A stretch of 64,000 nucleotides of DNA. Source: Curvularia clavata. Its lineage: Eukaryota. How positions within the stretch are numbered: the first letter of the stretch is position 1; each line of letters opens with the position of its first letter. The notes under the pieces were generated by a model. It saw only the letters and a list, made by a program, of their open reading frames with translations. It ran no database searches and was not told the origin of the DNA. Made by a program: the position numbers and the translations under genes. The stretch is taken from positions 3,844,001 to 3,908,000 of the forward strand of contig CP089275.1 in the NCBI GenBank assembly GCA_023920165.1, in the 5' to 3' direction. Below are positions 19,801 to 57,700 of the stretch, piece by piece.

Positions 19801-22103
19801 AGAGTTCGGTCTGCGAGATGAGAAAGTTGAGCTTCCGCTTCTGTCGGTTGGCTTCACGGTCAGCTTCAGCCTTCTTTGCGTTCTCCAGCTCTTGACGCTC
19901 AGCATTCTTTCGTGACTCGCGCTCGTCTCGCTCGTTCCTCTTCCAGAACGCGAGCATCTCGCGCATGCCTCGCTTCGCCCTAGCCTGTGTATCCTTCTGG
20001 TTCTTGTTGGTGCGCATCTGCCATCGGCGTGCTTCTTTGGCGGCCAGTTGGGCAGTCTTCCGAAGGTTGGACTGTTTAGTGGATAGAGAGTTCTCTTTGA
20101 TGCGGACGACCTTGGGAACATCTTTCCGGGCCAGGTCTTTGACGATCTGCTGGTAAAGGTTGCGGTACGCAGACGAGTCGTAGGAAGTGAGCACGACGGG
20201 GCCAATGTCTTCGGTGTAGCTGCGGCCTCGTATTGAGTCAAGCCGGGCTTCCTCACGGGGAGCGATCATGGGGAGATCATCGCCACGGTCGAGAGCAGCT
20301 TGGCCGGCAGCTGCGGCATCCTTCTCCGCCTGCTTCTGTTCCTTGCTCTTCTTAAGACGGCCAGTGCCACGGTTGCCCTTGCGCTTCCCGCCAGGAACGT
20401 CGTCGGAAGCCTGGAAAGAACTCATTGTGCCGCCCTCCATGTTGGGGCCATGTGGAGTGACTTCGCGGATGTCCTTGCTAGGAGCATTACCCTGCAGAAG
20501 CTGGGTGGTGGTCTTTGCCTTACGCTCAGCTTTTTGCGCTGCGAGCAAGTGTCGTTCTTTCTCCTCCTCGTTCTCAGCCTGGCCGGCCTTTGCAAGAGCC
20601 TCCGCACGCTTGGCCTCCTCGTTCTGGATAGTCTTTTCCCGTCTCCGCTTGCGTTGCATGTCCTTCTTGCGCTCCTTCTCTTCGGCAATCTCCTGGCTCT
20701 GCACTTGCTGCCACGCATCACCCTCATGCTCGACATTGTATGAGTGCTTGGCGTAGTCGCGGTGCGCAGCTGACACATCCTGGAAGCGGATCAAGGTCGC
20801 TGTCCGCCTTCGCTTGCGCTTGCTGGCCTCTGTGGCGGAGACTTCTAGTATGCGCTTTTGGCTGCGCTGCTTGTATTCTGCCTCTTCACGCGAGTTGACT
20901 GGAAAGTCCATGTCACCCATTTGCGTGGTTTCGATGTGTGCCAGTTGAGCCTCAACCTCGGCCTCGTCTTGTGGATGGATTTCGCGGGTCGCAGCCTGTA
21001 GTGAGGGCTGCACGCTGCCGCCCAGAGGGATGGCATCGTAGGTTGTCCGTGGCGTGTAGCCATTCTCATGGAGAGGCACGTCAGCTGGTGCTGGGGATGC
21101 CATGGCCTCTTGCTTGACGAAGTGCTGGTTGGGCAGAGGTTTCGATGGTCGATATGGATCGGCGTTGACGGGAGCAACCGACTGAGGTTTTGGCGGGGGT
21201 TCGTTATCCGCACCAGAGGACATTATACTGGAGAGTGACATGGGATCGGCACGCGTTGGCGGCGGCGCCTGGTGGTGGGTGAGCAACAATGGCACATGGG
21301 AGCGGGAGACGCGAAAGTCACTTACCTCATCCTTGAAAGACGGCCGTCTATCATAGCTCGGGGGAGGCGGAGGCGGCGGCTGGACAGCACCACCGGGCCG
21401 GTTCATGGATTGATAGACGGATGGGGAGACGGGAGAATGGGACATGGTCTCCATGGCACCGGTGTGCTGGTGTTGAGAATGGGGGCGCTGCAAGGGCGAG
21501 TGATGGGATGGATATGAAGTGGTGATGGGCGAGTGATAGACCTTTTCGTAGGGGCTGTGGGCGGGTCGGGTGTCGTGGTATGCGTGAGGATCCCGAGCCT
21601 GGAGCGTGGACAGGGTTAGCGGTGCCTCTCCTGAAGACGGGGGGAGAGCAAGGTGAAGGGGGCAAGCGGGCGACGACGGGGAGGATGGTGAGGATGAATT
21701 GACGCGATGAAGGGTTGATGGTACGCACCTGTGTGGGATACTGGGGGTCGTAACGCGCCGGGTCTCTGGCTACGCGGCGGTCGCCATTGTCGGAGGTCGG
21801 GTCGTAATATCTGGACGTGTCGCGAGAATAGAGGGCCGTGCTGATGGGCGGCAGCTCGGTCGAGGTGGGCGATGGGGGCGGGCGGTGGTGTTGATGGGGC
21901 TGCAGCGGCAGAGGTGCAGGCGTGTTTGGGGAGTGGTGGTGTTGGTGTTGTTGGTGGTATGGCTGGCCTGCTCGTGTGGGCGACGAGTGGTAAGCTGATG
22001 GCGTAGGTGCGCCTTGGTGCCCTGGCGGCATCCTGTCTCCTCGCGACCGCTCCTCGCCGCCGCCATCATCAACCGACGGGCGCAGGACGGGATCGCGAAA
22101 CAT
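16814..22103 (-). CDS. INO80: INO80 chromatin-remodelling ATPase
   Basis: DBINO region ([19 protein letters not shown]), [16 protein letters not shown] box and split SNF2 helicase ([11 protein letters not shown]). Introns 21599-21728, 21269-21325 and 16972-17025. Start codon uncertain. Confidence 0.96.
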
Positions 22104-23287
22104 GGGACTGGCGCGTTCCGACTCTCTCAATGCGTCTGGGGCGGCTGCTCCATGGACGGGCAGCAGGCAGGGCGGGCGGAGAGGCGCGCTGGAATGGGGG
22201 CGACGAGCTGGCTGGAGATGCGCCTGGTGCTGCGGGAGCCGGTTGCGATGGTCGGCCTGCGACTGGCGATGGATGGGAGCGAGGGGCCAGCAGACGAGGG
22301 CGATGGAGATGGGATGCGAGTTGGACTGGGGGGCGGGTGTGGAGCAGAGCTGTCGAGATCACACACACATAGGCACGAAGGGTTGGCAAGTCAGCTTCTG
22401 TCTAGTGCGGCTGCGGCAGCGCTGTCCCTGGGGCAGCTCCGGGCGTGATGCAGACCCGCGATGAGGTTTGATGGAGCGACCACGACTCGCTGCACACGTC
22501 GCCCTGCCACAGAGGCACCGCTGGCGACGACCAGAGCCCGTCTTGGGCGGTCAGAGATGCTCGTGGCGATGCTGGTCGCCCGTCTTGGGGTCGGCGAGGG
22601 CGCGCCCTCTGCTCCCTCTGCATTCGAGCCCGCTGGTCTCGTCGAGGCATACACACGCCCCCAGATGGTGCATCGACCAATAATTTGCATGCACGCGAGC
22701 GGCGCCGTGCAGCCTGCGGGCCGTCTTGCTCTGCAATTGCCTGCGCCTGTTTTTTTGCCTACATGCTGTCCATGTGCTGATGCCATGGCGATGCTACGGC
22801 CCGGCGCCGTATCCGCCTCGCTCGCTGGCAGACGACGACGTCCTCCTCGACTCTGCCCTCCGCGTGCCAGGTTGAGGCATTGCCAACTTCGGCAAATCAG
22901 CCACCGACGCTTCTCTGCACCACCCTCGCCGCAGACACTGCCCTGGTTCGCTCTCTCCATGGCCTTTTGCCTAGATTCCACTGTCGCGTCCTTACCATTG
23001 CCATCTCGCCATGGCAACTCGACGACGCGCGACAAAGCGCCATGAGCCCAGACGCACTCTAAACGGGGCAGGAGCATTGGGGCCTGCACTCCCTCATTGG
23101 GCGAACCCTGCCAGCGATGGTGACGGAAGGCGCGACCCATGTCGGTGGGTCGAAGCGTAGCCCGGCGTCGCGTGGCCCAAGCGTAGATCACGCTAAAACG
23201 CTCGGCGCATCCATTCTCGAACTTTTTCCAAGGGCGCGTTCAGTTTGTGAGCAGCAACAAAAGTCCCATCAACTTTGTCGCATCGCC

Positions 23288-24436
23288 ATGGCTTCCGTAT
23301 ACAAGACCCTGTCCGGCGCCGAGAAGGAGGAGAAGGATGTCGGCGTCAAGAGAAACAAGCAGCGTGTTCTTATTCTGGTATGCCATTTGCCTGCGCAAAG
23401 AAAAAAAATGATAGAGAAAATCCTTGCTAACAGACGACAGAGTTCAAGAGGTGTCACATTCCGCCACCGGCATTTACTGCAGGATCTCTACTCTTTGATG
23501 TGAGTAGTAGTCAAATCATCCTGCAAAGACACTTTGTTAATATTCCACAGGCCCCATAGCCGAAAAGAGGCCAAACTCGACACCAAGACGAAGCTCTACC
23601 AGCTTAACGAACTAGCAGGTACGAAATCCCGTTAATTTCAAGCTGTCTGATGATGAGAGGGCTCAAAAAATGTGCCTTTCATTCATCCGCAGAGTCTTGA
23701 GTTGAAACTGACCCAGCCAGAACTCTACAACTGCAACAATGTCCTCTTCTTCGAGGCCCGCAAAGGCAAGGATCTCTACTGCTGGATGTCCAAGCCTCCC
23801 AACGGCCCCACGGTTAAGATGCATCTCCAGAACTTGCACACCATGGAAGAGCTCAACTTCATTGGCAACTGCCTCAAGGGATCCCGGCCAATTCTTTCTT
23901 TTGATGCCGCCTTTGACAAGCAGGCCCATCTGCGTGTCATCAAGGAGCTCTTTACCCAAATTTTCGGTGTTCCCAAGACGAGCAGAAAAGTAAAGCCGTT
24001 TGTTGATCACGTCATGGGTTTCACCGTCGCAGACGGCAAGATCTGGGTCCGCGTCTTCCAGATTAGCGAGAGCGAGCCAGGCAAGAAGAAGGCTGCAGAC
24101 GGCGAAGAAATGGATGTTGATGAGCCTGCACCCAAGAAGAAGCACCACAAGGGAGAGCTCGACGTCAGCCTCGTCGAAATCGGCCCTCGCTTCGTCCTTA
24201 CGCCTATTGTTATCCAGGAGTCCAGTTTCGGAGGTCCCATCATCTACGAGAACAAGGAGTTCGTGTCGCCCAACCAGATCCGTTCCGACCTGCGAAAGTC
24301 CAAGGCCGGCAGGTTCAACAAGCGAACCGAGGCGCAGAGGGACACTCTGCTCAAGCACCAGGAGCTGGGTCTGACGTCGCATGGCGGGCGCAAGAAGGAG
24401 AAAGATCCACTCAGCGACAATGTGCTGTTTGCATAA
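23288..24436 (+). CDS. BRX1: Brix-domain ribosome biogenesis protein Brx1
   Basis: MASVYK..KQRVLILSSRGVTFRHRHL, GPTVKMHLQNLHTMEEL, GNCLKGSRPILSFD, LVEIGPRFVL. Introns 23378-23440, 23500-23550 and 23619-23720. Confidence 0.95.
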
Positions 24437-27183: not shown

Positions 27184-27568
27184 ATGGGGGTGAAGAGACG
27201 GAGTGTTGTGAACGGTTGCTGACGTTGATGTTTCTAGTAAAGGAATATTGTATAGAGTATCAATAAGAGCTTGACTGTCAGTGACTAATCATGTTATCAC
27301 AAGCGATTCCCTCTTCCTTTGGTCCGTGAACGGATCCTGTCTTTCCAATTCCCCTAATCTTCCATCTGCATTTTCAAAAGCCCACCGAGTCCCTCATCAT
27401 CTAAATCTCAATCAGAAACCCCTTCATTCCATTCAAGAACCCTGCAACTAGTCAAATAACCGAAAAGCGCTCACGAAGCTAGCGCCATATCCCCTTCATA
27501 TCCTTGTCGTTCCAAGTACTCTTCCTACTACTAGAGAGAGGAGGAGCCAGAGGCTCTATCTCCAACGC

Positions 27569-30500
27569 TTACGCATCAATAACCCACGTCTCGCCATCCA
27601 ACGTTCTATGCACCCTGCCTTTTTCCTCAAGGACTAAAAGGTGCGCAAGCAGTGTCTCAGTATCTGTGTTCAGCTCTACCGCCATATCGTTGATGTTCTG
27701 CCCAATGTAGGATGTCGGGCGCGAGCGGAGATCGTTTGTGAGGTGGGCAATGATTCTGATGTCGAGGTCGTCGAGGCTGTCTCCTCTTCCTTTCTTCTCA
27801 TTCTTGCCCAAGTTCGAGGAACTGCTGGAAAAAATGCCAGACCTGGGTGCAGAGGGTAAATCTTCTCGCTTGTCACTAACGTTTTGCCGGTTTCGGTCGT
27901 CCTTGGGATCCGAGTACACGTCTGGCATACGTCCTGCTGCTGTAGCTGCTGTGGCTCCTGCTGCTGCAACTCCTGCCGCCACTCCTGGTGCTGCCACCCT
28001 CGGTTTGGCCCTGCTTCCTGCTAACAATCTCCGAATACGGTCTCTTATTCCTCCTCCTGAGAATGGACCCGGGTCTCCCCCTTGTCGATCCGCTTCCCCT
28101 TCTTTGTTCTCCTCTGGGTTTTGGAACTTAGATACACTACGCAAACGCCTGGATTTGAAGAGTGAATTTTCACTGTCCGAGTCTTGAGAGATCCTGGGAA
28201 TGCTGGGCTCAATTGTGGGGAGTACACTTGCTCGGCTATCGAATACACCAGAAGAAGAGCCAGGGCCGAGTGCGGAGGTTGAGCTTTCTGGCTCATCTCT
28301 GACATTGTACCGATTTTGATTGTCCCTTAAATCAGTGTCCGAAACTGACCGCGCTACATCCACTGCTGAGGATGAAGCTATGTCTCCTCGTCGCACAGCC
28401 TCTTGTGTTTCCATGAACTGAAGGTCGCTCTCGCTTATGAATCGTGGCCTTGTTTCCCCATATTCACATGTTTTCTGTCTAGTGTATTAGTACTTATAGA
28501 AAATATTTATAGGTATGACGTCTGTGAGGGTAAAGGACTACTAACTTGTTTCCCCAAAGCCATGCAACGGCCGCAAGGATGCTGGAAGTCACAACGGAGA
28601 TATGCCTTCTTGCAGTTGATACATGCCAAGCCTTTTGTCTTTCTAGCTGGATTAGCTGGCTCAGCTCCTTGGTCACTGTTCGGAAAAGCAGTTTCGCGGC
28701 CTCCGCTGATGACCAGATCAGCCATGCCATTCTCAGCTGGGATCATTCGCAGGGTGCGGCCCTCCATGTCGCCGTTGAACTGCAAGCTGAGTGGGGCGTT
28801 GGCATCAATGCGGAGGCGAATCTCGTTGTTCTTGTTGGTAATGGCGGTGCGATTGCTTCGGCTCCGTTCGCTGCCAGAGGAGCTGGAGTCGGAAGGCAAA
28901 AAAATAGTTCGTGAATACCGGGCGGCGTTGTGAGTAGGGTCGTTCAGTGGCTCACGAGCACCACGTCGAGCACTGATGTACTCTCCAGCTTCGTTTTCGA
29001 TGCGCTTAGTCTTGCGCTCGAGCATGCGCTCCTTGCCTTTGCCATCGCCAGCGTCAGTGGGACGGCGGCGGCGGGCCTGAGATGGAGGAGGCACTGATGC
29101 ATCTGGAAGAAATTGCTCATCAAATTGCATTGCTTTGGAGTAGGTAGGGGTGCCAGGCATGCTGGAGGGAGATCGCCTGGACGGAGGACGGAAAGCGGGC
29201 TTGACAAGCTCACCAGCATTCTTTCGCAGTAGCGGCGGTTTTACCCGCAGCTCATCGTCCTCAATATCGCTGCCGTCCTCCTCTTTTTCATCCCCTTTTT
29301 CATTCTCTTTATCTTTGTCTCTATCCTTCTGTTCTTGAACAGCTTGCGTGATGGCTTGAGCCAAAGCCTGGCACATTGCATCTTCGTCACTTTGTCCACC
29401 GAACCGAATATGCACCGTAGCTTTATCTCCTGGCGGTGAATTATCTCTCTGCACCTCTGAAATTGTCAAATCATAGAAACCTGTTCCGTAGTACCATTTG
29501 GTGTCAGCCTTTATACCAAATGACATCAATGGGAGACTCTCGAGATGGTAGGAATCTCTGGAGAAGGTGAATGAGTCTCTGAATACTCTGATAATGCATA
29601 AGTCTTCACAAATGGGCTGCGGCGTTGTTTGATCGAATTCTGTGACGAAAACTCTGGCAGTTGCCGTAGCCAAGGGCTCTTCCTCTGACATTCTTTGAGA
29701 CGTTTGCTCTAGGAGACTGGATTGAGAACCGCTGGGGCCAGATGTCGGCTTGGATAGCAAGGTCTCTGCTCTCTTGAAAGACTGGCCCTCTAACCGGTTT
29801 GCAGGAGCTCCCTCGGGTGGTGGAAAATATACAGGCAAAAGTCTTCTGTAGATGGACTCATTGTTGGATGAGTAAACGGTGAAGACAATCTTCTCCAGAC
29901 CACCAGGCTCTTTGGATTGTAGAAACCGCCTGATTTCTTCCATGGCAAGTGCTGCACAATCGCGGGGCGGACCCATCCCAATACAGGGAATAGCAACTGA
30001 CTTGGCGTTCAAGTATGTAGCTTTCAACAGGATTTCGCGGTATATGTTGCGCAGTACGGTCTTGGTATCGCTTCGAAATACCCCGGGCGGGATGACATGC
30101 AAGATATGCTTGGCTGGTAAAAGGTACCCTGCAGTTGTTACCACATCACCCATCTTGCACTCACCAATCCTTTCGAGTTTTGATTGCAGTTCCGGACCAC
30201 CTTTCCTGAAGATGGTACGATCCAAAGTTCCCATACCGAGAAAGGACTTGTCGGTAACATTGACGATGACGTCGACCTCCAGCTTTGTAATGTCTTCTTT
30301 TATCAAGCAGACGGTATCATTGAAGCTTGCAGACGGGGGCGCCAGAGTAGATTGTGCTTCGATAGCCCCAAGCTGGTAAAACCGTGCTACAGACGGTATC
30401 TGATGTAGCTTAACTATATCTTGACGATGAGAAACAGGTGATACAGAATCTTTCAGGGATGTCTCATCATCCTGTGGATCGAATATGTCATTAGGCCTAG

Positions 30501-33500
30501 CAAGGGGAATACGCATAGGGCGGCTGCCGCAGTAGACACCTTGCATCTCCACCACAGCCTTCTGTTGGTCTTCCTTGCTGCCGAAGCGGACGAACCCATA
30601 ACCTGGCAGTTTGCTGCTGAGTGGGTCGAATATGATCTTTGCAGACTTAGTAGAGGAATACTTGTCCTTAAAAAGTTGGAAAAGGCTAGATTCGGTTACG
30701 ATAGGATCTAGGTTGTCGATGAAGAGGCTAGATCCCGGGTGATGCTGGTCACGGCTGTCTTGATTGTAAGCACTCATTGCAATGGAGTCATGGAAGAAAG
30801 TCGTGGATAGGACTTGCCTCTCGTCAGCGGGACCGCCGCTAGAAACCGGATCCAGTATAAATGGCTTGTCGCGAACACTTGGCCTATCTGCTTCGCGCAT
30901 GTAACCCTCTAGAGCTAGGGTCGCTTCGATCGTATCCGGGTCAAGCCTCTCTGAGGTCAAGGCCTGATTGAGACTGCCCATAAGAGTCCCACAATAAATC
31001 AGATATTGCCTGAGACTATAGCCGTGCGTCGCAAGCATGTCCTTGTCGGCCTCATTCCGTAATTCCTGATACGTTCTTGCAGTGTGTTCCTTTGCTATCT
31101 GGGCCATTTCTATGATGCGGCCGCATAGATCCAAGAGAACGGAGGATAGTAAGTCGAGGTTGTCCTGGTTTATTGTAAACCCTCCGGACCCATGCGATTT
31201 CTCATGCGCAGAGTCCAGTGCGGCATCGATAAGCCGGAGGATAGTAACATCTTCCTGAGCTACGGAAACATATTTAATGAGCCCACTCCCGAGTACTTTG
31301 ATTGCTTTCTGTACTTGAACCAATGCCTCCAAGATCCGAAAGCGTAGTAGGGCATGATTTGGAGACGACGTCGATAATCTTGCCTTGTCAATATCGCTGT
31401 GCGTCGGCGGAAAGAATACAGGGAAAAAGTCGGTATAAGCCTTTCGGTCTTCTGCTGCCATGGTACAAAAGACTATACGTTCCAGTCGGTTTTCTGAGCG
31501 TGCATCCAAGTAATCGCGGACTGCTTGTAGTACTGTGCGTGCAGCTTGGCGAGGGGGGAAAATGCCACCTCCGGTACCCAAGCAAGGAAATGCGATCGTT
31601 TTGACTCCAAGTTCAGCCGCCATATCCAACGCATTGCGGTAGCAATCTCCAAGAAGGTTGAATTTGATAAGACCATCTTCCCCAACAAACGTCGGTGCAG
31701 CCGCATGAATAACAAATGACGATGGGAGGGCATACCCACGAGTCCATGTGACGTTGCCTGGTTTGAGTCTGCCTCTGGACATCACTTCTTGTAAGAGAAA
31801 TGACCCCCCGGCTTTTATTATGGCATGATGTAATGTGCCCGGGGCTGGTGATTGTGTCAAGGTCAGAGGAGCATTGTTGACAATAGCATCTACCTTTAGT
31901 TTCGTCAAGTTATGGGAACAGAAAGAAATAGTACGGTTATAGACATCATTTGGCGCGTAACTCTGGTCGGTTTGTACCAGTTGCATCGAACGATACAGTG
32001 AGCTCAGTGTTGGGATATCCTTTACCTCAAAGGGTAGTGGTGTGTTCGAGATTTGGGCTAGCTCTGGATGGTATGAGCTGTCAGGGCTGTTCAGTCGCTC
32101 TGCTATTATTTCCAGTGTATTTCGACTCGTGTCGGGGAGGTGCTGTAGGTTCTCTGCGGAAAGTGCATCGCCACCGGGGCCAGCTACATCAACTGACTCG
32201 GTCTGGTCGGGCTGTAGGGTAGCTGGTAAACAATCTTTAGCTGACGTACTCTAAAACATGGTACTACTGTATCTTCATAAACTTACAATCCTGGTTCTCT
32301 GTTTGCTCATCCGCCATGCCTTCAGATACAGAACCCAGAAGAGATCTAGAGCTAGCACTACCAGGGCTTGCGATACCACTTGCTCCATCTGAATCATCTT
32401 CACTGCCATGAGGAAGAGCAAAGGTTGCGATTCGCTCCAGATGATTTGCAATATGGCTTTGCAAGTCATCTAGCTCTTCGGCATCTGCGGATGCATAGCA
32501 TATCGGGCATTTTTCTCGCATATCTACTGCGGTAGCCTCGCCAACTTTGGCAATAGTTTCCAGCTGGCTTTCCGGAAAGCTGTCGAGATGTCTTTGTCGA
32601 AGATGATTTTCCAAGCCAGACTGAGTACTGAATACAGCGTCTGGATGCTCTGGACATCTCCAAACCTTGCGGTGGCTTGCTTCATGCTCAGCCCATTCTC
32701 TGCGGCTGCGAAAGAGTAGGTGCGAGCTCTCACAGTCTTGGTATGTACAACAGTATGGCTGTAAGTCCTGTAGTAAATGTGTTCTCCAGGGTCTTCCTTT
32801 GCTGTATCTTGCGGGGCAAACAACCCAGCAGTATGGGCACTCGAAGTCTTTATCGCCGTTTGCCGTTTTGGGGGGTGGGGGAAGTTCAATACTTTTTCCA
32901 TGTACATCTCTCACCGTTACGGCATAACTTGTTACTGATTTGTTGTCTATTATATCGTCCAAGGGTTGGTGGAGCTGTGTTGCCTCTGTGCCTGAGAGCA
33001 GTGTTTTTCCAGTCTTCTGACTCGGCGCTTCTTTGAGAGTCGTGGCAACGGGCACTGTTGGATTTTTTCCCACACCATCATCATGAACCTGCGCTGCTCC
33101 ATCAACCGGAGCAGCGACCTTGACTTCCTGCACCTCATCTGCCACCTCCGCGGAGCTCAGCTTGTCACGATGTCGTTTCCAGTATTTAAAATGCCGTCGC
33201 CGAAGCGTCACCGCTGCACTCAACCTCTTGATCAAAAAATCATGCTCTTCCTGCACACTATCCCCTACATAGGGCTGACGCAGAAACGACACCAACTCCT
33301 TCACATGCTTGAGATCCTGCTCCGCATACACATCAAAGATATCGATGCCCGTCTCAGGATCTTTCTGCGTGTAAGACGATGCTTTGAGCGACCTTGAGCG
33401 GAGGCCCGGCGTCCTAATGCGCACGCTTAGCTTGTAGAGATTATCGATGATGTCGACGATCTCTCTGAAGCGCATACTCAACTCAGTTCTGGGTTCATCG

Positions 33501-33892
33501 CTGCTGTTGCTGCTGTTTTCGTCGTCCGAGTCTGCACTGAAGAAGCCATCGTCGTCGTCTTCAGTTGGCTCTGGTGGGGTTTGCTCTTCGTATGGAAGAC
33601 GAGCGCCAGATACCACTGCATGTGCTTCATTGACGTTGGTTTCAAGTTCTTGGAGCAGCTTTAGTGTGTTGGTGCTGGAGACTGGTGAATCTCGTAGCCG
33701 GTAGTCGAGTGAGCTGTGGCCTTTTTGGAGAGCACCTAGATTTCCGGCCCAGACGCGAAATCGTCCGATTTCGTCTTCGAGCGCTTCTTTTTCAATGGCA
33801 TGGGTCCACTTGCGATCACCGGTACTGAGCGCAGTGATTAAATTTTGAAATGCCCGCACATTCGAGGCCGTCGCGAGTCGTAGGGATGACAT
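27569..33892 (-). CDS. ~2062-aa mosaic protein: N-terminal helical domain, C2H2 fingers, macro, RRM, macro, PH-like?, Gac1-like segment, Zn2Cys6, RPA32C-like winged helix
   Basis: Introns 32223-32286 (GTAAGT..CCAG) and 28475-28545 (GTTAGT..CTAAT..ACAG) join ORFs 32264..33892, 28507..31986 and 27569..28414 in frame. Exons are 1606+3677+906 = 6189 nt. The second splice supplies the sixth Cys of the Zn2Cys6 motif. Confidence 0.8.
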
Positions 33893-34374
33893 GGCGAGCA
33901 GTTGGCATGTTGGGTATGTGCAAGCGGGGGAAGGAGGGGCCTAGGACTCAGACCGCGAGCGAAGGATGCTCTGCCGATACTTAGTGATTCATGCTTCTGA
34001 GAGTGTATTGTGAAGACTGATATCATGGTGATTTGTAACTTCAGCTGCGGATGCCTAGTCGGGTATAGATTTCGTGATGCTAGGGCTTTTGCAGTTTGGC
34101 GGGGGGGCTGAGCCTGAGCTGAGCCTTGTAGGCAGGCAGCTTTTCGTTCATTTATCTCAGCTACTCACCTCACAAACAGTCTGCAGACATATATGCAACT
34201 CCAATACTCTAGCACATTCAGAATTACTGACTGTGGCAACTAGAGGCGGCGGGCGTGTTTTCACGGGCACCTGCTTCGGGAGCCAGCGCAAGGCCCCCCA
34301 CTCGTTCCTTCCCCTCTGCGCGCCCATGACAAGCGCCACTGTCTCTCTTTGTATATTATGAAGACACACCAAAA

Positions 34375-36308
34375 ATGAGCGGCATAGAGATAGCTGGTCT
34401 TGTTCTTGGCTGTTTGCCGCTGATTATTCAAGGTGCGCATAGGTACAGCCATGGAAGATGCAACACCGACCTGACAGCAGCCTAGCGATCGAGAGCTACA
34501 ATGAAGGCCTTGACCCTATAAAGGGTTTCTTTGGAAGGGACAAGGAGCTGCCCGTATTTATCAGAAAATTAAGAGCCCAGTATGATCATTATGACCAGAC
34601 AATTCAGCTCCTCTTTGGATCCATTACGACAGACGCCGAGTTCGCGTTGATGATGAGCAACCCTGGATCGTCGCAGGACCTTTGGAAAAGCAAAGAGGCG
34701 GCACTTCAGGATAAGCTCCAGAATACGTACAAATCGTATCAGAGGACAATGATGGAGATTGAAAGAATAACTAAGAAGATTGCCAGCAGGCTAGATCTGG
34801 ACCGTGCAACCGAGGTAGGGACGGGATGTGGTTGGCCTGGTCGGGCTATGTTGACGTGAATCATAGGTTACCCGGGATGATCTTGAGGCACTCCTGATCG
34901 CAAACCCCAAAAAGGCCAACGACAAGTTTGAAATCAGGAAGCGCGTCCGATTTGGCATGAACAAGAAAACGATTAAAGCGCTCTTGGAAGAACTGGACGA
35001 GTGCAACAAAAGCCTCGAAAGATTTACTGAGAAGAGCGAAAAGATAGAGACATACCACCGAGCGACCAAGCCTTCGTATGCCTCACGGCTGCAGAAACTA
35101 CAGCGATATGCCAAGACACTACATGAGTCGCTGAGTGTATGCTGGTCATGTTCATGCAAGCTCTCACACCGAACAAGCCTCCAACTAGAGCCTCGAGAGC
35201 ACGTCTTTGCTACGAAAGGGCAGAAGCCAACGCCCATGCCGAAAACAAGCTTTAAGGTTGCTTTTTCGACTGCAGCGTCGGATATGGGCGGTGTATCGTG
35301 GCTCGTGCAGGCTGCAGAGATAAGCGTAGAAGAAGATGATGATGATGACTGTCTCGTTGGCATGAAATCTCTTAGCCCAAAGTAAGTGATTGATATGCAT
35401 GAGCTCCGTTTGGTGGCACAGACATATGCGTACGTGCTAGCGGTGAGTTTGATACTAACAGTGGCAGAATCACCAAAACCGTCAGCTTCGGTACCCTTCC
35501 TCCATATGCTGTGATGAATCCGATAGAGAAGCCTTTTGCTTCGCACCAAGAGGTGAAGGACTTGTGTGCATCGATTCGAGAACTACACAAGAATGCCCCA
35601 AGGATTGGCTTTTTGCTAGACAGTAAAAGCAAGTTGCGTGGCGCTTACTCGATTGATACATCGGAAACACAGGTTCCTAGCATGGAAATGGTATCCCTGG
35701 AGGATCTGCTGAAGCAGCCACCAATCATCAACGGCAGGCGCTCAAAACTGAGCATGAAGGACAGGTATAGTCTGGCTGTGACATTGGCATCTAGTGTCTT
35801 GTACTTGAACTCGACTCCATGGCTGGCTAATGAGTGGACCGCTCGCGATATCCTGTTCCATCAGACGCCGAACACTGCACAACCGATAAACATGCAGCAC
35901 CCATATCTAGCGCCGGCGGCTGTTGGGACAATGAATGGTGCACTGGGACAGTCGCCGCCAGACCACTTCAGAAACACTGTTCTGATTGCTCTTGCGGTGA
36001 CGCTCCTCGAACTCTACTTTGGAGTGACGGCTGAGAAGTATCAACAGCTGGAAGGCGGGGACGACATGGCTGAAATGTCAAAGCAACCGGGGCCGTGGAA
36101 GCTTTGGGCACTGGCACGTAGCTGGACGTTCAACGAGTCTGGAAACCTGTCTGCCGCGTTCCAGAATGCCATCCGGCATTGCATAACAGGGTCCAGCGAC
36201 CCTTGCGCGAGTTTACAAGACGCCGAGTGTCTCCAAGCTGCGGTTGAAAACATTGTTCTACCACTGCAGGAGGAGCTCGACCAGTTTCTGGGGAAGGCAA
36301 CAAAGTAA
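34375..36308 (+). CDS. HeLo/HELL-like N-terminal domain plus pseudokinase-like (DUF7580-type) C-terminal domain protein
   Basis: Starts MSGIEIAGLVLGCLPLIIQ. Introns 34433-34485, 34815-34866 and 35382-35467 join in frame. C-terminal motifs: RYSLAVTLASSVLYLNSTPWL..W..DILF, LIALAVTLLELYFG, FQNAIRHC, ENIVLPLQE. Confidence 0.78.
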
Positions 36309-38265
36309 ATGCAGCGGCGTCGCATAGGTACCGTACCGGTTCGGAACGATAGCCGCTTATTCAACGCACATCACCTCGTATTTGATCCACCCGCCCGCGA
36401 GTGGGATGCGGCTCTGGGGTAAAACGAGGTTCGCTAGTGCGGCAGCGCTTGAACGTCATGATTGAGGAGGGGGTTAGGATTATTGGTCAAAGTAGTTCAG
36501 CCGTGATGATGGCGACGCGAATAAGGTGCCATGGCAACAAGGGCATCTGATGGCAATGTGACAAGTTTGGTGGGATTAATTGGTGGGATAGGCCCACAGG
36601 ATGGCTTGCTTGCTTGTTAGCATGGTTGACTGGGCACGGCAGATACAAGCTCTCGTGCCTGCCACTATGGGTAGTACAGAGGCTTGGCTGGTCGCCTGCC
36701 TTGTGTGGGTTGAAGGCATATGGTTCGGAGGCGGGCGACAAGACGGGTTTGGTGGTGAGGGAGCAGGCACCTGGTGGGTGGGGCATAAGCATGTGGAGAC
36801 GATTGGTGCTGGGTGCGGAGCTGGTGGGGGGTCCGTTATCTATCTGACATTATCCACAAAGTCGACATGGTTGCTCACTGCACGATGCGCATGTCTGGCA
36901 AGCCCGGAGGATGACATGGCCGGCGGGTTTGGACGACGTCATGGTCCGTGGAGGAAAAAAGAGAATTGGGCTGGCCGCATATCGGACAAAGATTGCAGTT
37001 ATTAGCTGGGCCCCTATTGGAATTTTTCAGTGGGAACCAGAAATGTAGCGCACAGCCAGTGCTCGCCATGCATGATATGGGAGATGGATGGAGATGGGTG
37101 GGTGTTTCCAGAGTGATTAGCCTGCTTATGCTGGGCAATCATGTGCAACATGGCGGCAGGCGTACAAAACCCAGGCTTGTAAGACGGGGGTTTGGGCGTG
37201 GCAGTGAGGGCCAGTCATTGGTGCCGAGGGAGCGGGATAGTTTGGACTTTGCAGCAGAGTTGGGTTGTTGCCATGGCGCAGTGAAAATGTCCGAAGAGCA
37301 GCGCGAGTGGGCATCGAGTGTGGGTGGCAGATGGCGCGTCTTGCTGTCGACTGTCTACACCGCCTGGAGCAGCAACCAGAGCAGACGCAGAAGCAGAAGC
37401 AGAGACGGGCAAGGTGGGACAAGGAGCTAGACGATTAGAGTAGCGAGTGGCTTCGGCAAAGGCTCTCGTTGGCGCGCGCGCGACAGGCGGCCGACATTGC
37501 TGAAACAAGGCCTGCGGTTGGACGAAGGACGCGGAGAAGGGAGGCAAATGGCCACGCTGAGGGCGGCGAGCAGCGACGTGATTGCGCACTTTTCTCCGAG
37601 GGGGCGTGGCCGCGGCGAGACTTGGTGCACTATTAATGGAAAGCAAGCACAAGACGTCGTCGGCCCAATTTCCAACGTCGGTCGGCGGCTTGGTTGCAGC
37701 AGAGACGAAGGGACATGGAAAGAAGATAGCCCTGCCGTGGTAGTATGCAGCGGGTAGAGAGGCACGCCAACCACGGCCACAGACACACCACCACTACCCA
37801 CGCACAACACCGCGTCAACGACACGGCCCCGCCACCACCACAACAAATAATACATGTACATGTACACACGCCTTTGCCCTCATCGACGCACCCTCAGGCT
37901 CCCCACGCCCCCTTTGTCGCCCTCCGCCTTGACGCTGTTGCGGCTAGTGGGTTTGAGGCGGCGGCCAGAATTGCGCACTCAACGCTCGCCAGTCTATCCA
38001 GGGCCACCCCGGTCGGGCCAGGCTTGGCGCATCGGCACCCCTTAACGTCACCTCTGGATCCGTTTTCTCGACTCCCAATTCAAGCTCCTGCCAACCCTTA
38101 CCCTGTTGCTCTCTTCTCACACGACACTCGTTCACCCTCGGGACGCCCGCTCGACAGCCCGCCAGCGCAGAGCGCACCACCACGCTCCTTTGCTGCCTCG
38201 CTCTCGCCCGCCCTCTTGCCCACACCCTCTCCACATCACTTCGCACACGTACCTATACACCCACC

Positions 38266-39931
38266 ATGGCGCAGCAGTACGCCCGCCCCTCCCCGCCGCC
38301 CGCTCCTGCGGCTCCTCCCGCGCGCACATGGCTAACTCGTCTCCAGAATCACGTCGTCCTTGAAGGACTTCTGGCACACAATGACTTCGTATGACCGACA
38401 TGCCTCGCACGACTCTCCCTATCGGACCGGCCGTCACATCCCCATCCCACAGAGCCGCCACGCCGCCCTCACCTCCATCGCCACCAGCGGCGCAGAGTCC
38501 CGCACCGACCTCAACTCGCCCTACCAGCACGACGAGCTGGCCACCAGCAATGGCTTCATCGGCTCTCCCAAGGGCCCAATGTCCCCCAGCTCCCCCTACT
38601 CGCCCGGCATGCGTGGCTCCCTCAGTCGCCAAGCCACACTCGACTCGGATGCCTTCGACAAGGCTGCCAATGGCCAGATCCCGATGCAGGACTTCAACGA
38701 GGGCCTGCCTCCCCCTCCCCCAGTTACCCACTCATGGAAGCGCATTGATCGCTGGGTCGAGGACAACTACCAAGAGCTGTTTGACAACTTGTGCGAGGGC
38801 TGCACATCCAACGATGTCAACGAACTAGAGCACGAGCTGGATGCCACGCTCCCCATGGATGTCCGCGAGTCGCTGCAGGTCCACGATGGTCAAGAGCGTG
38901 GCGGTCTCCCCACCGGTGTCCTCTTCGGCCTCATGTTGCTCGACTGCGAGGAAATCGTCATGGAGTGGAAGAACTGGCGCAAGGTCGCCGAGGAGTACCT
39001 GACCACAAAGGTCGACTATTCATCCCCGCAGATTCCAGTCAAGGCCTTCGCCGGCTCCTCTACCACGCCTCCAGTTGCCCAAGTGCAGAGCACCGGCAAT
39101 CCGCTGTGGCGACAAGACCTGCTCGCCCGCCAGGACTCGCAACCGCCAAACGCCGTACAAAAGGCCTACTCCCACCCGGCCTGGATTCCTCTTGCTCGCG
39201 ACTGGGGGGGTAACTACCTGGCCGTCGATCTTGCACCCGGTCCGAATGGCACATGGGGACAGATCATCATCTACGGCCGTGACTACGATTGCAAATACGT
39301 CGTCGCACGCTCCTGGGGCGCGCTTCTTGCCATGGTTGCTGACGACTTTGCTTCCAAGGACGTGCACATGGACGAAGAAACTGGCGAGCTGAAGCTCTTG
39401 ATCTTCAAGCGCCAGAACGTCGAGCCGCCTTACCTAGAGGTCCTCCGCTGGCGATGCGACCAGAAGCACGGTCGCCGACCTCCCAAGAGACGCCCAGTCA
39501 GCGGTCTGCGCGTCAATCCAAACGCCCCGGGAATGGTTGTTCCTAGTAGCACTGCGAGCAGCCCTTACCACAGCCCGGTGATTGCACCAGAAGACCGCGG
39601 CCGCAGTCCTCACAGGCTGTCAAAACCGCCAAAAGGCGTCAGCCCACGTGGTAAGCTCTCGAGCCCCTTGGCACGTGTCGCTGAGGAAAACCCACAACCG
39701 GTCCGTGTAAACACAAACCTCGATTCCAAGGCTGCTGCCCCAACCGAAAACCTCATCTCCATGGACACCCCGAGACCAAGCGACGAGCTCTCTCAACCAC
39801 GCAACAGCTTAGGTAGCGACAAGGAGAACAAGGAGAGCAAAGAGAGCAAGGACACAAAGAGGACTTCTTCATCGCTGAAGAGCCCTACTGCTGCCGCTGA
39901 GCCAGAAGGCCTAAAGACTGTCGAGATATAG
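38266..39931 (+). CDS. SMI1: Smi1/Knr4 glucan synthesis regulatory protein
   Basis: SMI1_KNR4 motifs LPMDVRESLQVHDGQE, HPAWIPLARDWGGN, VDLAPGPNGTWGQII. An 11-nt first exon (ATGGCGCAGCA) is followed by intron 38277-38346. Confidence 0.93.
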
Positions 39932-40167
39932 CCATCTCGCAGCAATTGCTTCTCTTCAAACCATACTCACCGTTGACGATCTACTATTAGAAGGAACCCG
40001 CTGGATACCTGGCAGTCGAAATAAACATGATAGGAGTGCAGGCGTAGGATGGAGTACAAAATCATCACAACATTGAGTTTGTGGTGGTGTTTGCTTGGCA
40101 ACATTGACAGCATTTTCTCCTTCTCCCAAGGCAAATGGGGCGTTTTTTTCAACAATGCAAATCTACT

Positions 40168-51497: not shown

Positions 51498-53861
51498 TCA
51501 GTAGTGGCTGCCCGCCATCAAGCCATGCTGTGGCGGCGCCATGGACATTCCTAGTGATGGGCCAGGAATGTCGTTGATAGAGTGGGAGAGACCCGAGAGG
51601 TAATCGTTGCCAGATTCAGGCGACAAATCATCCTCAAGCGACTGAAGGTGGTCTTCTTCGCCTTCGAGGTCTTCTTCTTGGTAATCGCTCAGCGGCTCGC
51701 CGTCAGCGCGGGGCTCGTGGGTGCGACGATGTCTAGTGGAGCAGGTTAGCATGTGGCTTTTTTTGTGTGGATAGCTGACGAGCCAAGGGGAGGCATACTG
51801 GGCAAGGTTGTCTGAGCGCGAGAAGGCCTTGTTGCACAACGGGCACACATATGGTCGTTCTTGTGTGTGGGTACGCACGTGTCTAAGCGCCGGTGTCAGC
51901 GTCTATGCAGAACAACAAAAATAAAGTGGAGCAGGGCTTGATGCGGTGAAACACAGGTGAGGGAGATTGCGGGCGCTTACCTCTTGAGGTGTTCTAATCT
52001 CTTGAACAGACGACCACATGTGGGAATTGGGCAGGAATGAGACTTCTGAGGGTAGGGGCCAATCTCCATCATAGTGGCACTTCGTGCGCGCCTAAAGATG
52101 GGACCGGCTGTACCAGCGGTACGAGCAATGGCGCTGTGCTGCAGAGGGCTCTCGAACAGCTCGCCGTTGACGAGGTTGTTGAGGTCGTCCTGCTGCAGGG
52201 GAGCGGATTGGGGCTCGGGGTCCTCCTCGACAGTGTTGAGAGGGGTTCCTTGGCGGGACATGTCGAAGGCAGGCTTGGACTCTGGCATTTGAGGAGCAGA
52301 GTAGCTTGCACCGTTTGTGCTGTTGGGAGAATTGTGTGTGCTCTCGTCAACCTCAGCCAAAGGAACAACAGAGCTCGACATGGACCTCCTCAAGTCACTG
52401 GGGCGGTGGACCTGGTGGGCACCGGCACCGGAAGCAGTGACGGCGGCAGCAATGCCTGCAGACAGAGAAGAACGCCTTCTTCGCTGCTTGTAGGTAGGCG
52501 AGCCCTCGATGACCGAGTAGACGTTACCAGGAGCAAAAGGCCGCGAAACACCTGGGTAGCCAGGACCCATGAGGTTGGATGGGGGGATGTTCATCAGCGG
52601 GTTGAAGGTGGTAGGAGCAGGAAGATCTGGGATGGCACTGTAGAGGCCAGTGTCCTCGTTTGCAATGTAGGCAGGCTCAGCACCAAGGCCAATCTGGTGT
52701 TGAGGAGGTGTCAAGGGCTCAAAGGACATGCCGCGAGTGCTGTAGTCCTCGTAATGAGAAGAGACAAAAGAAGGTGCAGGCGAGTACTCCATGTAGGCAG
52801 GCATGGAGCTGTGGCGCTGGTGAATCTGAGACAAAGGAATACCGTTGCGGTCGTACTGGAAGGACTGGCTCATCTCACGCTGCTCCCTGCTCTTGACAAT
52901 GGTGTTTGGCATGGAAGGAGCCATGGACATTTGCTGGTGGTAGTGAGCCATGGGGTCTTCGGTGTGCATTGGTTGCTGCATGGCGGGCATGGACTGCTGC
53001 ACGGGGACCATGGTTGGTGGGGGCATCGAGTCCATGCTTCGCATGTCGGGCGATGTGGTGGGGTACGACGGCTGCACGTTGTTGTTGAAGGACGAAGAGT
53101 TTGTTTGTTGCGCCTTTGTGAGCTGCTCGAAGAGCGACTGGGATGAATCGAATTCAAAGGAAAGAGCAGGCTCGCTGACGGCCATGGTGGTGGCCTCCTG
53201 GCCCATCTTCTCACGCTTCAAGTCGCGCTCGAGGGCATCGAGGAAGAGCCTGTCGTGGGGCACACTGTACCAGTAAAAGACTTTTTGCTTCTTCTGTGTG
53301 CGGATGCAGTTGTTCTTGTAGAGAAAGTCAAGGAAAGCGCTCTTTGGCTCTTCGAGCGAAGCATCTGTGCCGGACTTGAGGTTGCGCAAGTCTGAGAAGA
53401 TACCCTCTTCGAACTTCTTGGAGTTCTTGACGGGACGGCCAAAAGCCTGGAATCTGAATGACAGGCATCGTACAATGTCTGTGCCTGAGATATGAAAGAG
53501 GTTGTTCCTGGGCTGGGTTAGACAAGAGTGGCTGGTGTTGTTGTGGTGATGAAGGGGACTTACCAGAGAACGCAAGAGACGTACTCGCCGGTGGGGAGCA
53601 GGAAGCGGCGGATGTACTGGTCTGGTTGCCAATCTACGGGTGCAGAGATGAGAAAGTACTTGACTGTAAGGCAAGTGTGTCAGCGAGTGTTTGGGGGCCA
53701 AGCGGGAGGGGAGAGGACATACGGTTGTCAACCTGCTGCAGGGCGACGACACTGTCTGGCGGCAGGCTCTGCTGGGCGTCTTGATCGAGCAGGAAAGTCT
53801 CGGGTGCGACGGAGCGTGCCTGAGGGGGCGGCATCTGGGCGTGGTGGGCGGATGGATACAT
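51498..53861 (-). CDS. STE12: Ste12-like transcription factor (STE homeodomain plus two C2H2 fingers)
   Basis: LKYFLISAPVDW, KKFEEGIFSDLRNLK, CIRTQKKQKVFYWYSVPHDRLFLDALERDLKRE, CPIPTCGRLFKRLEHLKRH, CPLCNKAFSRSDNLAQH. Introns 53664-53722, 53508-53563, 51883-51980 and 51733-51798. Confidence 0.96.
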
Positions 53862-54559
53862 GGTGCGCTGCAACACGATCCTCTTGTGCAATAATGGTGT
53901 TTGGGAGTGGGAACGTCAGACGCGCTGGGCCCGAGGATGGTTGGGCGGGGGAGAGATGCAACGCAAACAGGGAGGAAAGGGTCGTCGAGGACCTGCCAGG
54001 ATCGAAAACGAAAGAGTGTCAGGTTATGTTTAAAAGGAGTAGGATAATCAAACGCGCGGTGGTGCCGTCGATAATAAAAACGTGAGGAACCTGCCTCAGA
54101 TAGCAGTCTCTGTCTTGACCACGAAGGTACGGCTTTGGGAGGGGGATGCGAAACGCAAATCTGAGGGGGCAGCGGCAGCTTTAGGTGTCGGAGGGCGAGT
54201 GAAACAGGAGCCTAGTCGTCTCACATTGATCTATTTCCGCACGCCAGCCAGCGGCATGGCCTGTGCGCATAGCGCGGCCAATTGGGGCTCCGAGGGCCCC
54301 GCCAGCGCCCCGGTCGCCCGCAGGGATCATGGCGACTCGTGGGACGGCCGTCGTGCATGCGTTGGCCACGGCGCCCGAGGGCTGGCTAACGAGCTTGGCC
54401 TGGCCCGCCGCTCGTGTGCTGTGCGTTGTGGGTGGGCGGCCGGGCCTGTGTGTAGTAGTCGTGGTCGTGGTGAAGGGTGCGATCGAGTCTGTCCTGCCTG
54501 CCTGCCCCGGTAGGAGCGAGTGCAAACGGGCGGCCATGCATCTGGAAGGTGCGTCTGGT

Positions 54560-54720
54560 CTTGCTTGCTTGCTTGCTTGCTGCTGCCACTTGCGTGGGTC
54601 GCTCTTCCCTTGTCCGCAGCGCCCCGACTGCCCTCGCTCCTGCCCGGCCTGCCTCGCTCCTGCCTGCCCTGCCTGCTTGCTTGCTTGCGCCCGCTCGCTC
54701 CTTCCTGCTGCTGCTACTAC
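54560..54720. repeat. (GCTT)n/(GCCT)n tetranucleotide microsatellite cluster upstream of STE12
   Basis: ttgcttgcttgcttgcttgc and gcctgcttgcttgcttgc read directly. Confidence 0.7.
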
Positions 54721-57700
54721 ATACACCTCATGTTGGTCCGTCGGCCAACGCCGCCTTCTGGGCCTAGCTCGCTCCCTCTCGTCGATTTGGCTCCGTCTCC
54801 AGACAAACCTTACTGCAGTTGCGTCAGTCGACCTCGTTGATCTCGCCGCCTTCGTCATGTACCCATCCGTTCACGGCCAGGCCACACGTGGACGCCCTGC
54901 AAAACCTTGCTCAGCTCGCTATACAAGTAGAGTTCGGCCACACACCGTCCCATGGTATCCACAGCCACAGCCTATCTTGTCTTGCCCACCTGCGACATTT
55001 TCTTCTTGCCGCTGCTTGCCCACCGTCACATGAACACGTTGCCGCCCCTGCCCACTGCATCTCCATAGCACGCACATACTACATACTTCTGCTGCTCCTA
55101 CTACTACATGCCTCTGCTACTGCACAAGACATACTACTCGACTAGCCCTTTGATCTTCGTCTACCAAACACGCGCCCTCCTGCCCTCCTCCCCCTCCCCC
55201 ATCCTCCCCCATCATCTCATCCACCACAAGGTCTGCGCTATTGCTGCAGGTACATCACGCCCTGCACGCTACTGCTACAGCCTGCACGCTGCACCGTCTT
55301 TCAAATCCTTAGTCTGTGCGTCGCAGCACCACGCTACCCAGCCTCGCCGCTCGCTGCTCACCACCATCGCCTCCTCCACTCTCTGAGCGACAGACCGACT
55401 GAGGTGCGTCTAGATGCAGGAACCACCACAACCAACCCTGCCCGCGAGGTTTGATCTTCATCTGAAACAAGGCCCTAAGCCCGCCTCGCGGGAGCGCCCA
55501 TGGCCTCTTGCAAATCCCCTTCACATTGCTCTCTACCACTACCTGCCTGCCTGCCTACATACACTCAGCTTCAGCCAACTCACTCTCACCCAATTGCTGG
55601 CCTGTCGCCGTTCATCCAGCGTCTCCTCAACCATACAATCACAGCACTGCGAGCCTATACACAGACTTGCTTCTGCTCGGCGTCACGCTTCGCCCGCCCG
55701 CCCGCCAGTCAAGTGTGGGAGCGGTTTCAGATTTTCTTTTTGGCTAGCCGACAGCACCCGACCGCCTCGCCCATTGGTCGGGGAACTCATCGCTTGCCTC
55801 GGCCATACTCCCCTCCTGCGCGCAAGCGCTGCCCGCTTCTGGACAACATGGATCCCCGTTGCTCCAGCATTCATGCGTTGGAGTAGACCCTGATGTCACT
55901 GGCACTGTCTTCCTAATCTGACGCCAGCCCACCTCTTGCTTACCACCCAAACAGTGGAGAAAGCTGCTACTGCTACTCAGCTCGACTGCCCACCCGCACC
56001 TGGGCACATCCACGCACACGCGCACTCATTACCAATTACTTACTGGGGTCCTAATAACTCTACGCCACTCAATCTTCCATCCGCTCCCAGACTCGCCCCG
56101 ACCACCAGTCCATGCTCGCTGACCGCTCTCTCCTTTCGCCTTCTTCTCATCCTCCTATATCTACATGGCCTGCACCTATATCGCACACGCACCCCCATTA
56201 ATTCTTGACCTTGGGTAGTAAAAACATGGGGCCCGTTTCCGCAAACGCTTGCGCCCGCCAGTGGAACTAGCAGTGCCGTTGCCGAAAACAATTTCCCGCC
56301 CTGCCATCCTCTTTTCACTAGTCATGATACAATTTTGCTCGGAGCAAACAGCCATTTCGGTTCGCGTGAGATTGTACCTGCGTTAGTGGTCCTAGAAGTC
56401 GCATTTCTGAAACCTATTGGCCCTTAGGCCGACTGCCGAAACGGGTGACGACGTGCCGGTCAAAAGTGGACTGCCCGGCTTCGCTAACACGTCCGTCTTC
56501 GAATATGACATGATAACAATGTCTGCCCTTGGCCTTAATGTTTGTCCTTATAGCTCGTCAGCCACTTAGACGCACGTGGGTCCAACGTGTTCCCCACCGA
56601 TATATCGATCAAGTCCAACGTGCCATGATTCAAGCTACAGATTATCGCCTTGCAGAAGGGCAACGCAAGCCTAGAGCAAGCCCACATCCGTATTCGGCCA
56701 GACGTTAGGGCTTCGCCAACCGTCGTTTTTGGCGACTTGGTTCATCACCCCCAAAGCAGTCGATGAGCCTGGCAACTCTAGCCGTTGCCAGCCACAATCA
56801 ATACTTCTATACCCCCTTTTCGGCCGCGTTTGGCTTGTCAACGTGGGCAACCCCATGCGGCCCCAAGCAGTTCGGACGGGTAAATGCGACAAACTGTCCC
56901 CATCACCGCTGATCTGTCCCTGCCACCAGTTTACGGCAGGCATGACGAGCGATGCCACTATCCATACCCAGCCCCGGTGCCTGCAAAGACCCTGCAGCCG
57001 AGCTTGCCTCGTTTGCGCGTCTGCTGTTTCCGTGGCCGTTGATCAGCCATGCGTGTATCAGATATTGGGCGTCTGTATCAGCAGACTGCTGCCAGTTTCA
57101 TGTCCACTCGTCACTTGCACAGAGGGTCCATCGCCACAACGTAATCATCCTATGTCGGGATGATCACACTACGCGACGGGTGGATCTGGAGATCAGTCAG
57201 TCTTCGGTCATTTCGCCGCTAGTCCAATGTAGAACACAGCATAGCAGTATGCTTCCATCGCGATCTTGGTTGACAATGTCCGCCGTCTGCATCTCAGGTG
57301 TTGCACAGGACTCCCTTCTCCCCTTTTGTACATTGAACAAACTCCTTCTGGAACGCTTCTATTCCTGCACAACTGCTAAGTTTGACTTTACTAGTCGCAA
57401 TTGCGCCATCTTTACCGACAATATCATGCTGGTGACTATTAGAGTTCCCTAGCGGAGACAGTGGTCGACTAACGAAGCGAAGTCACCAGCTTGTCCTTAG
57501 TGTCCTCTTCATGCGGAATACATGACACATGGAAGATCCAAACCTAATTCCATGCCAAGCCACTGCCACCATTTGTAGAAGCGGCCCGCGTAAAAAAAGA
57601 GATAGCGTGTCAGTGCATTGTGTACTCGCGATTCCGCTTGCGGATCCTCAGCTTACCAGCTGACCGGAAGTGCGCCTGTTTCAGGTGCAATCGGCGACAA

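Follow-up and report, generated by a model that had tools for sequence, protein, structure and literature searches.

To our knowledge, exon shuffling has mostly been inferred from old events that have become blurred, and fungi offer few young cases that are clear. In plants, Helitrons (PMC3288121) and CACTA elements (PMC1947982) are described as setting pieces from multiple donors side by side and as copying them at the DNA level together with their introns. The integrated domains of plant immune receptors in the nucleotide-binding leucine-rich repeat class (NLRs; PMC5067614) follow the pattern of a conserved scaffold with lineage-specific pieces of unrelated host proteins, and the exon-shuffling hotspots or 'tinkering loci' of Drosophila affinis are described (bioRxiv 10.1101/2025.10.28.685065) as small regions that gain fragments of multiple genes from across the genome and yield composite-frame transcripts. 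Comparable in these respects is a macro-domain gene (33892..27569, minus strand) on a 64,000-nucleotide stretch of Curvularia clavata DNA (contig CP089275.1, positions 3,844,001 to 3,908,000; hereafter the window, in which all coordinates are counted from the first letter). The explanation that we favour, and regard as probable, is that this is one transcribed gene with three introns, as read from contigs of relatives, encoding a fast-evolving Pleosporales macro-domain protein whose two inter-domain linkers received four short copied pieces in the Curvularia lineage. In such a case four donor families can be named, the junctions can still be read, and one donor intron is still spliced in the new host.

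The macro-domain scaffold and the pieces in its linkers

A protein search with exon 2 of the gene (exons 2a and 2b below) returned 143 proteins, of which 120 were listed, and 94 of those listed (P0002-P0095) make up one family, many of its sequences partial, with genera that include Bipolaris, Alternaria, Pyrenophora, Stemphylium, Didymella, Ascochyta and Plenodomus. Both macro domains were aligned by all 94 relatives and the helical spacer by 93, and the N-terminal part (residues 1-500) and the winged helix (residues 2000-2060) were aligned by 57/94 and 63/94, respectively. The order of the scaffold, including the helical region between the macro domains, is the same in P0004 (Bipolaris zeicola) and P0022 (Cucurbitaria berberidis) as in the window protein. 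Residues 1-525 of P0004 were 78% identical to the exon 1 product by tblastn. Identity to Bipolaris was 78-82% in the N-terminal part vs 43-55% in the macro region, and the host's own domains were 43-62% identical to their Bipolaris orthologues; to judge from these alignments the macro-domain family is evolving fast.

Pfam identified Macro in two stretches of exon 2 (1.7e-40), and the best solved-structure match of both was human MACROD1 (macro-1, 101.6 bits to 2x47_A; macro-2, 102.6 bits), with PARP14 next. A profile built from the PH_24 regions of ten relatives matched residues 1382-1505 weakly (17 bits, E 2.4e-7 for one target), and Pfam itself gave no PH_24 match to that region. At the winged helix the match to HTH_69 was weak (E 0.057); orthologues have matches to RPA_C and HTH_69. 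Exons 1 and 3 had no Pfam match at E <= 0.01 and weak ones only at E <= 1. The Pfam library used was one without PF26082, which is database-listed for relatives, and without PF26118.

An earlier note on this DNA had described the protein as a patchwork of ten modules from unrelated genes, assembled by serial capture of gene fragments. All ten modules were found, in the order given there, but six of them are native to the family of 94 other Pleosporales proteins: the N-terminal helical domain, the C2H2 cluster, macro-1, macro-2, the 'unknown globular' domain (which is PH/EVH1-like) and the winged helix. Capture applies to the other four, the RRM, the Gac1-like peptide, the beta-rich fragment and the Zn2Cys6 cluster, which are foreign. 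These are the following putative captured blocks, named by letter:

30490..30870, minus strand: block C (residues 987-1113), the end of RRM1, an intron and RRM2, from a Nam8/Ngr1-type three-RRM protein
29116..29277, minus strand: block E (residues 1518-1572), a 55-residue peptide from a CBM21 (Gac1-type) PP1 regulatory subunit
28663..29122, minus strand: block F (residues 1573-1722), a 150-residue C-terminal piece that aligns with residues about 613-765 of an ~800-830-residue conserved hypothetical protein
28448..28626, minus strand: block G, with the Zn2Cys6 cluster (residues 1735-1770) interrupted by intron 3

Comparison with the architectures of orthologues, which the same note had proposed, cuts both ways: the scaffold is common to the family and the four pieces are absent from the 94 relatives. 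Blocks C, E, F and G had no match in any of the 94 at E <= 0.01, the window's own protein being the sole one of the 95 matched, and the one overlap was in P0036, in which the macro alignment extends into the RRM. The window protein is thus alone in the family in carrying the RRM, the CBM21 peptide, the F piece and its particular Zn2Cys6. As far as these alignments tell, the scaffold itself is an old, conserved Pleosporales architecture, with an acuF-like C2H2 cluster. We also considered whether block F might be the PF26118 domain of many relatives; this was ruled out, as the F-family profile matched P0001, the public protein of this gene, and no other of the 95.

Block C matched Pfam RRM_1 (2.1e-13), and its best single-domain solved match was RRM2 of yeast Nam8 (5zwn_V, 63 bits). 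Three-RRM representatives were 46-53% identical to the block in a full HMMER search, the flank before the RRM included; a word-indexed protein search with the RRM block gave 295 candidates, 0 of them significant. The Bipolaris orthologues run across the site from residue 1004 to 1012 without the block. A metagenome scan for the RRM-donor family produced 80 loci, 78 with both flanking motifs, which were spaced by 36-39 nucleotides (nt) in 59 loci and by 85-102 nt in 19. We examined 16 of the 19 long-spacing loci (three were left out as duplicates by length), and all 16 had an intron of 49-66 nt at the same codon (after its second base) and in the same phase, 2, as the intron within block C (intron 2 of the gene). 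These introns were GT-AG, with one GC-AG: locus L079 (about 1813-1871) has a GC donor (GCACGC) at the homologous intron, and a GC-AG intron is therefore not unique to the captured copy.

On this homology, intron 2 is inherited from the RRM donor gene and is still removed in its new host. Retention of the donor intron means that genomic DNA was copied and not mRNA, and an RNA-mediated retrocopy was ruled out on the same ground. Block C was 51-55% identical to all 80 donor loci and, by that measure, is either older or faster-evolving than blocks E and F.

Blocks E, F and G could also be compared with contigs from relatives of the window's strain (runs X1, X3, X14 and X15, of which X1, X3 and X14 represent three studies). 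Block E was 80-83% identical to residues about 192-247 of CBM21 proteins among the matches listed, and a relative's contig of 2639 letters aligned to 29116-29274 with 18 differences. Block F was 79-81% identical to P0096-P0098 (hypothetical proteins of Exserohilum and Bipolaris), and a relative's contig of 4092 letters aligned to 28688-29122 with 31 differences. The E-donor and F-donor matches overlap by 7 nt (29116-29122). Blocks E and F resemble donors from other genera more closely than the host's domains resemble their orthologues in those genera, which argues for young copies, taken from well-conserved genes, rather than old parts lost elsewhere.

The predicted fold of block F had a mean predicted local distance difference test score of 63, with the last ~45 residues alone confident, as a small beta sheet. 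In a protein atlas the best cluster of P0097, of the F-donor family, was 'putative SUZ domain-containing protein' (0.92), which we treat as a lead only. In the same family, residues 275-473 of a metagenome protein of 1259 residues (P0137) were 87-94% identical to Alternaria members, and this protein continues for ~780 residues that carry PF26118 (precomputed), a domain otherwise listed for many macro-family proteins; P0137 may be another chimera or a fused model.

Block G passed the Pfam Zn_clus cut-off narrowly (2.3e-4; 21.6 bits, cut-off 21). Intron 3 splits the cluster between Cys5 and Cys6, and splicing of 28475-28545, as had been proposed, restores the spacing C-x2-C-x6-C-x5-C-x2-C-x8-C. 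A further contig of a relative aligned to 28547-28626 with 4 listed differences, breaking at the exon end, and its next letters read Q-E-T-C vs Q-K-T-C in the spliced window, which suggests that in the Zn2Cys6 donor, too, an intron lies at this position. Intron 3 plus the first 14 nt of exon 3 are flanked by a perfect 12-nt direct repeat (28545-28556 and 28449-28460, 96 nt apart); we estimate that ~0.04 such pairs would be expected in 1.1 kb, and the repeat is possibly a junction microhomology of the Zn2Cys6 capture.

Gene model and transcript contigs

On the minus strand, three long stop-to-stop open reading frames (ORFs) follow one another head to tail. They had been proposed to be one gene, 33892..27569, joined by introns at 32223-32286 and 28475-28545, and this is borne out: with both introns removed the frame is open throughout, with 2062 codons and a single terminal stop. 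The ORFs and the parts of the gene are:

32264..33940, minus strand: first ORF
28507..32250, minus strand: second ORF
27569..28486, minus strand: third ORF
32287..33892, minus strand: exon 1, with the ATG at 33892, the helical N-domain and the C2H2 cluster (about 32425-32845)
32223..32286, minus strand: intron 1, GTAAGT..CAG, 64 nt, phase 1
30818..32222, minus strand: exon 2a, with a linker, macro-1 (about 31408-32025), the helical region and the start of the RRM block
30755..30817, minus strand: intron 2, GCAAGT..ACAG (GC-AG), 63 nt, phase 2, in frame and stop-free
28546..30754, minus strand: exon 2b, with the RRM, macro-2, the PH/EVH1-like domain, blocks E and F and the first five Cys of the Zn2Cys6 cluster
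about 29821-30423, minus strand: macro-2, within exon 2b
about 29314-29685, minus strand: PH/EVH1-like domain, within exon 2b
28475..28545, minus strand: intron 3, GTTAGT..CTAAT..ACAG, 71 nt, phase 0
27569..28474, minus strand: exon 3, with the sixth Cys, a low-complexity region, the winged helix (about 27578-27775) and the stop codon at 27569-27571

Eight runs of one organism contain about half of the window's sampled words, which fits a divergence of about 2%; the contigs are those of runs X1, X3, X14 and X15, from relatives ~1-3% diverged. Single contigs of 6615 letters (X1) and 6548 letters (X3) span 27400-34036 and 27400-34019, respectively. Intron 1 is exactly absent (GT..AG) from the contigs of X1, X3 and X14, as predicted, and orthologue alignments, including that of P0004, cross its junction. 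The same contigs also lack 30755-30817 (63 nt). The length of 2062 residues given in the earlier note was right in frame for its two introns but missed this third, in-frame GC-AG intron, and the mature protein is probably 2041 residues long. The depth of the gene contig and that of the donor contigs differed 4.5-fold in X1 and 55-fold in X3; a ratio that varies by run is as expected of RNA, and the contigs are accordingly read as spliced transcripts. At the third intron, agreement of the relatives' gene contig with the window ends at the last exon base, 28546, beyond which the contig departs.

The public protein P0001 ('MACRO domain containing protein [Curvularia clavata]') is 2021 residues long and shares introns 1 and 3, but carries two additional predicted introns that shift the frame across the C2H2 cluster (window 32524-32910) and replace the cluster by 81 residues from another frame. 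Orthologues align here in continuous frame, and the relatives' contigs show no joint across exon 1; the two extra introns are unsupported. The public gene model thus needs correction: its two spurious introns abolish the C2H2 cluster, and a real intron, the GC-AG one, is absent from it.

Elsewhere in the window, the divergent upstream neighbor (34443-36308, plus strand) has DUF7580 (7.6e-22) in the last of three ORF pieces that are probably spliced together. Three intervals (20001-24000, 36001-40000 and 52001-56000) have a GC content of 0.57-0.61 and strong, alternating GC skew (up to +0.26 and -0.21) vs a background of about 0.50; these high-GC stretches, which fall within or next to the ORFs of INO80, SMI1/KNR4 and Ste12, probably represent coding sequence of low complexity.

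Capture, constraint and competing explanations

Under the explanation that we favour, piece C would have been inserted, with its preceding donor intron, between the macro-1 module and macro-2, and pieces E, F and G next to one another in the stretch from the PH-like domain to the winged helix. The pieces match four donor genes, and all of them (4/4) lie in sense orientation and in the donor's own frame, as would be expected where a C-terminal domain is needed and insertions upstream of it survive only when they preserve the frame. At breaks in linker DNA, they may have entered as templated 'filler' through repair mediated by microhomology or through template switching. We put forward this templated break-repair mechanism tentatively, at somewhat below an even chance, and favour it because of the DNA-level copying, the shortness of the blocks (about 160-450 nt), the multi-donor array and the one 7-nt junction overlap.

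A multi-donor array could also be delivered by a transposon carrying pieces of host genes (of the Pack-MULE, CACTA or Helitron type), and blocks E, F and G, from three donors, do adjoin as in the plant elements for which stepwise capture is reported (PMC3288121 and PMC1947982). We consider such delivery highly improbable. A repeat search of 28300-29400 and 30400-30950 found, where the blocks begin and end, neither terminal repeats nor a target-site duplication nor Helitron ends, and no inverted repeat or duplication brackets a block, the pairs found there being short and at chance level apart from the one 12-nt repeat inside block G. All of the pieces are sense and in frame within the exon, neither a donor copy nor a second copy of the gene region occurs within the 64-kb window, and the window is a housekeeping region (INO80, GidA/MTO1, Ste12, SMI1 and ABC1).

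Once inserted by templated repair, the pieces would mostly persist as tolerated passengers, since a frame-breaking change would also destroy the downstream winged helix. We compared the pieces with their donors at columns that are at least 95% invariant among donors. Block E departs at 7/50 such columns when 88 donors are used, and among its changes are V to M and H to Q, by which the donors' KAVHF, which we take to be the PP1-docking RVxF motif, has become KAMQF. Block F departs at 14/112 columns when ten close donors are used and at 2/47 with 36 donors, and the RRM at 9/36. Between block F and the relative's donor transcript, 22 of the 31 differences were listed and fall in 21 codons, of which 13 are non-synonymous and 8 synonymous. 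The argument of the earlier note that a maintained frame implies selection consequently holds for the host ORF only, the copies having lost donor-invariant residues, and what keeps the frame open is probably selection on the winged helix at the host's C-terminus. The case separates two things that are often merged: selection holds the host frame open, and the captured pieces themselves drift.

It is feasible that the pieces are instead functional gains selected for themselves, adding RNA binding, PP1 docking and DNA binding, possibly as 'bait' domains, to a scaffold that reads ADP-ribose. They are four whole modules in native frame and not arbitrary fragments, the beta element that is best conserved in F shows 1 change over about 45 residues, the reading frame is preserved in both lineages, and other foreign Pfam domains occur in 5/31 other family members scanned. 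We nonetheless think this unlikely, given that the PP1-docking motif is without its valine and columns invariant in 88 donors have changed, that non-synonymous codons outnumber synonymous ones in F, that the nearest relatives carry other sequence in place of F, that the downstream winged helix alone explains maintenance of the ORF, and that the odd domains elsewhere in the family may be fused gene models.

Several observations weigh against the account of drifting copies from templated repair and deserve to be set out together. After about 50% divergence the RRM retains both RNP motifs (RNP2, LFIDNL; RNP1, GYGFVRF) and 27/36 donor-invariant positions, and all six Cys remain in the Zn2Cys6; these features also speak for functional gain and could mean that the pieces themselves are under selection. 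A microhomology is on record for a single junction, from the ends of local alignments. The kind of the runs is labelled 'RNA?', a guess, and their source is relatives rather than the window's own strain; the donor transcripts likewise come from relatives. None of the F-family matches and cluster members listed is named for Curvularia clavata. Lastly, block F is present inside the gene only in the window's assembly: the relatives' contigs of X1, X3 and X14 have 296 other letters at the F site (28667-29115, 449 nt).

The last of these points bears on whether block F, or the whole mosaic, is an artefact of assembly or annotation, as F in this context is known from one assembly only and the public model already holds two unsupported introns. 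To this we give only the slimmest chance. The relatives' gene contig holds blocks C, E and G; F is in frame; compared with the relative's donor transcript it has changes at 31/435 positions, mostly non-synonymous among those listed, and it departs at 14 of the 112 columns noted above, where a chimera with the strain's own donor should resemble an ordinary conserved orthologue. At a second variable stretch, the first 86 exonic nt of exon 3, the relatives' gene contig has 245 letters instead. The length differences at the two stretches (153 nt at F, 159 nt in exon 3) are multiples of three, and the frame has thus been kept in both lineages. Over 28072-28967 cover is absent in X15, and block F as it is arranged in the window is bridged by none of the runs; we draw no conclusion from this. 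Since one block differs between near relatives, sequenced Curvularia genomes, of which a set of ten complete ones is announced in PMC13688269, offer a means to date the process and to follow it.

The suggestion that the non-macro pieces, each under ~400 bp, could thereby escape repeat-induced point mutation (RIP) did not find support. Block F has 449 bp, 3/12 RIP-direction transitions (T or A in the window, C or G in the donor) stand in CpA/TpG context, and the blocks are not AT-enriched (GC 0.50-0.58 vs 0.48-0.52 in the host).

Other family members and known systems

Five family members from other species (P0060, P0066, P0056, P0086 and P0076) have foreign Pfam domains in their variable regions, among them AMPK1_CBM (7.5e-20) together with PFU, TPR_10/12, MIT, zf-RING_2 and a C-terminal Zn_clus unrelated to that of the window. 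These domains hint at recurrent capture in the family; fused gene models are also possible. By analogy with plant NLR decoys, the family's linkers might be recurrent landing sites for gene pieces, comparable in a fungus to exon-shuffling hotspots, and the integrated pieces, whether RNA-binding, PP1-docking and DNA-binding as here or glycogen-binding, PFU, MIT, TPR and RING as in other species, might be baits or sensors coupled to the reading of ADP-ribose, an idea that we regard as a very long shot. As to the reading itself, where the MACROD1 loop has GGGVD, macro-1 has PGTLH and macro-2 has GMGTLD, and the second glycine loop is changed as well. We take both loops to be catalytic positions in MACROD1, and the macro domains would accordingly be expected to bind without hydrolysis.

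In our searches, which covered open-access text, we found no description of this macro family or of such a fungal mosaic. From the plant Helitron and CACTA captures the locus differs in that no element ends were found and the pieces lie in frame inside a host exon. Microhomology-mediated end joining with templated insertions in filamentous fungi (PMC9779921, PMC9684475) is reported to place short templated DNA at a break, to which the 7-nt overlap of E and F may be compared; unlike the repair reported there, the mechanism here is inferred from one junction, with no break or repair event observed. The likeness to plant NLRs (PMC5067614) extends to other members carrying different extras. No NB-ARC or NACHT Pfam match was found in any exon, even at E up to 1, and no LRR; unlike the NLRs, the window protein has no known immune role, and the likeness is one of pattern only. 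The Drosophila affinis loci differ from the present locus in two ways: here the pieces number only four, without a demonstrated network of rearrangements, and the receiver is not a region of gene birth but the linker DNA of one conserved, expressed fungal gene.

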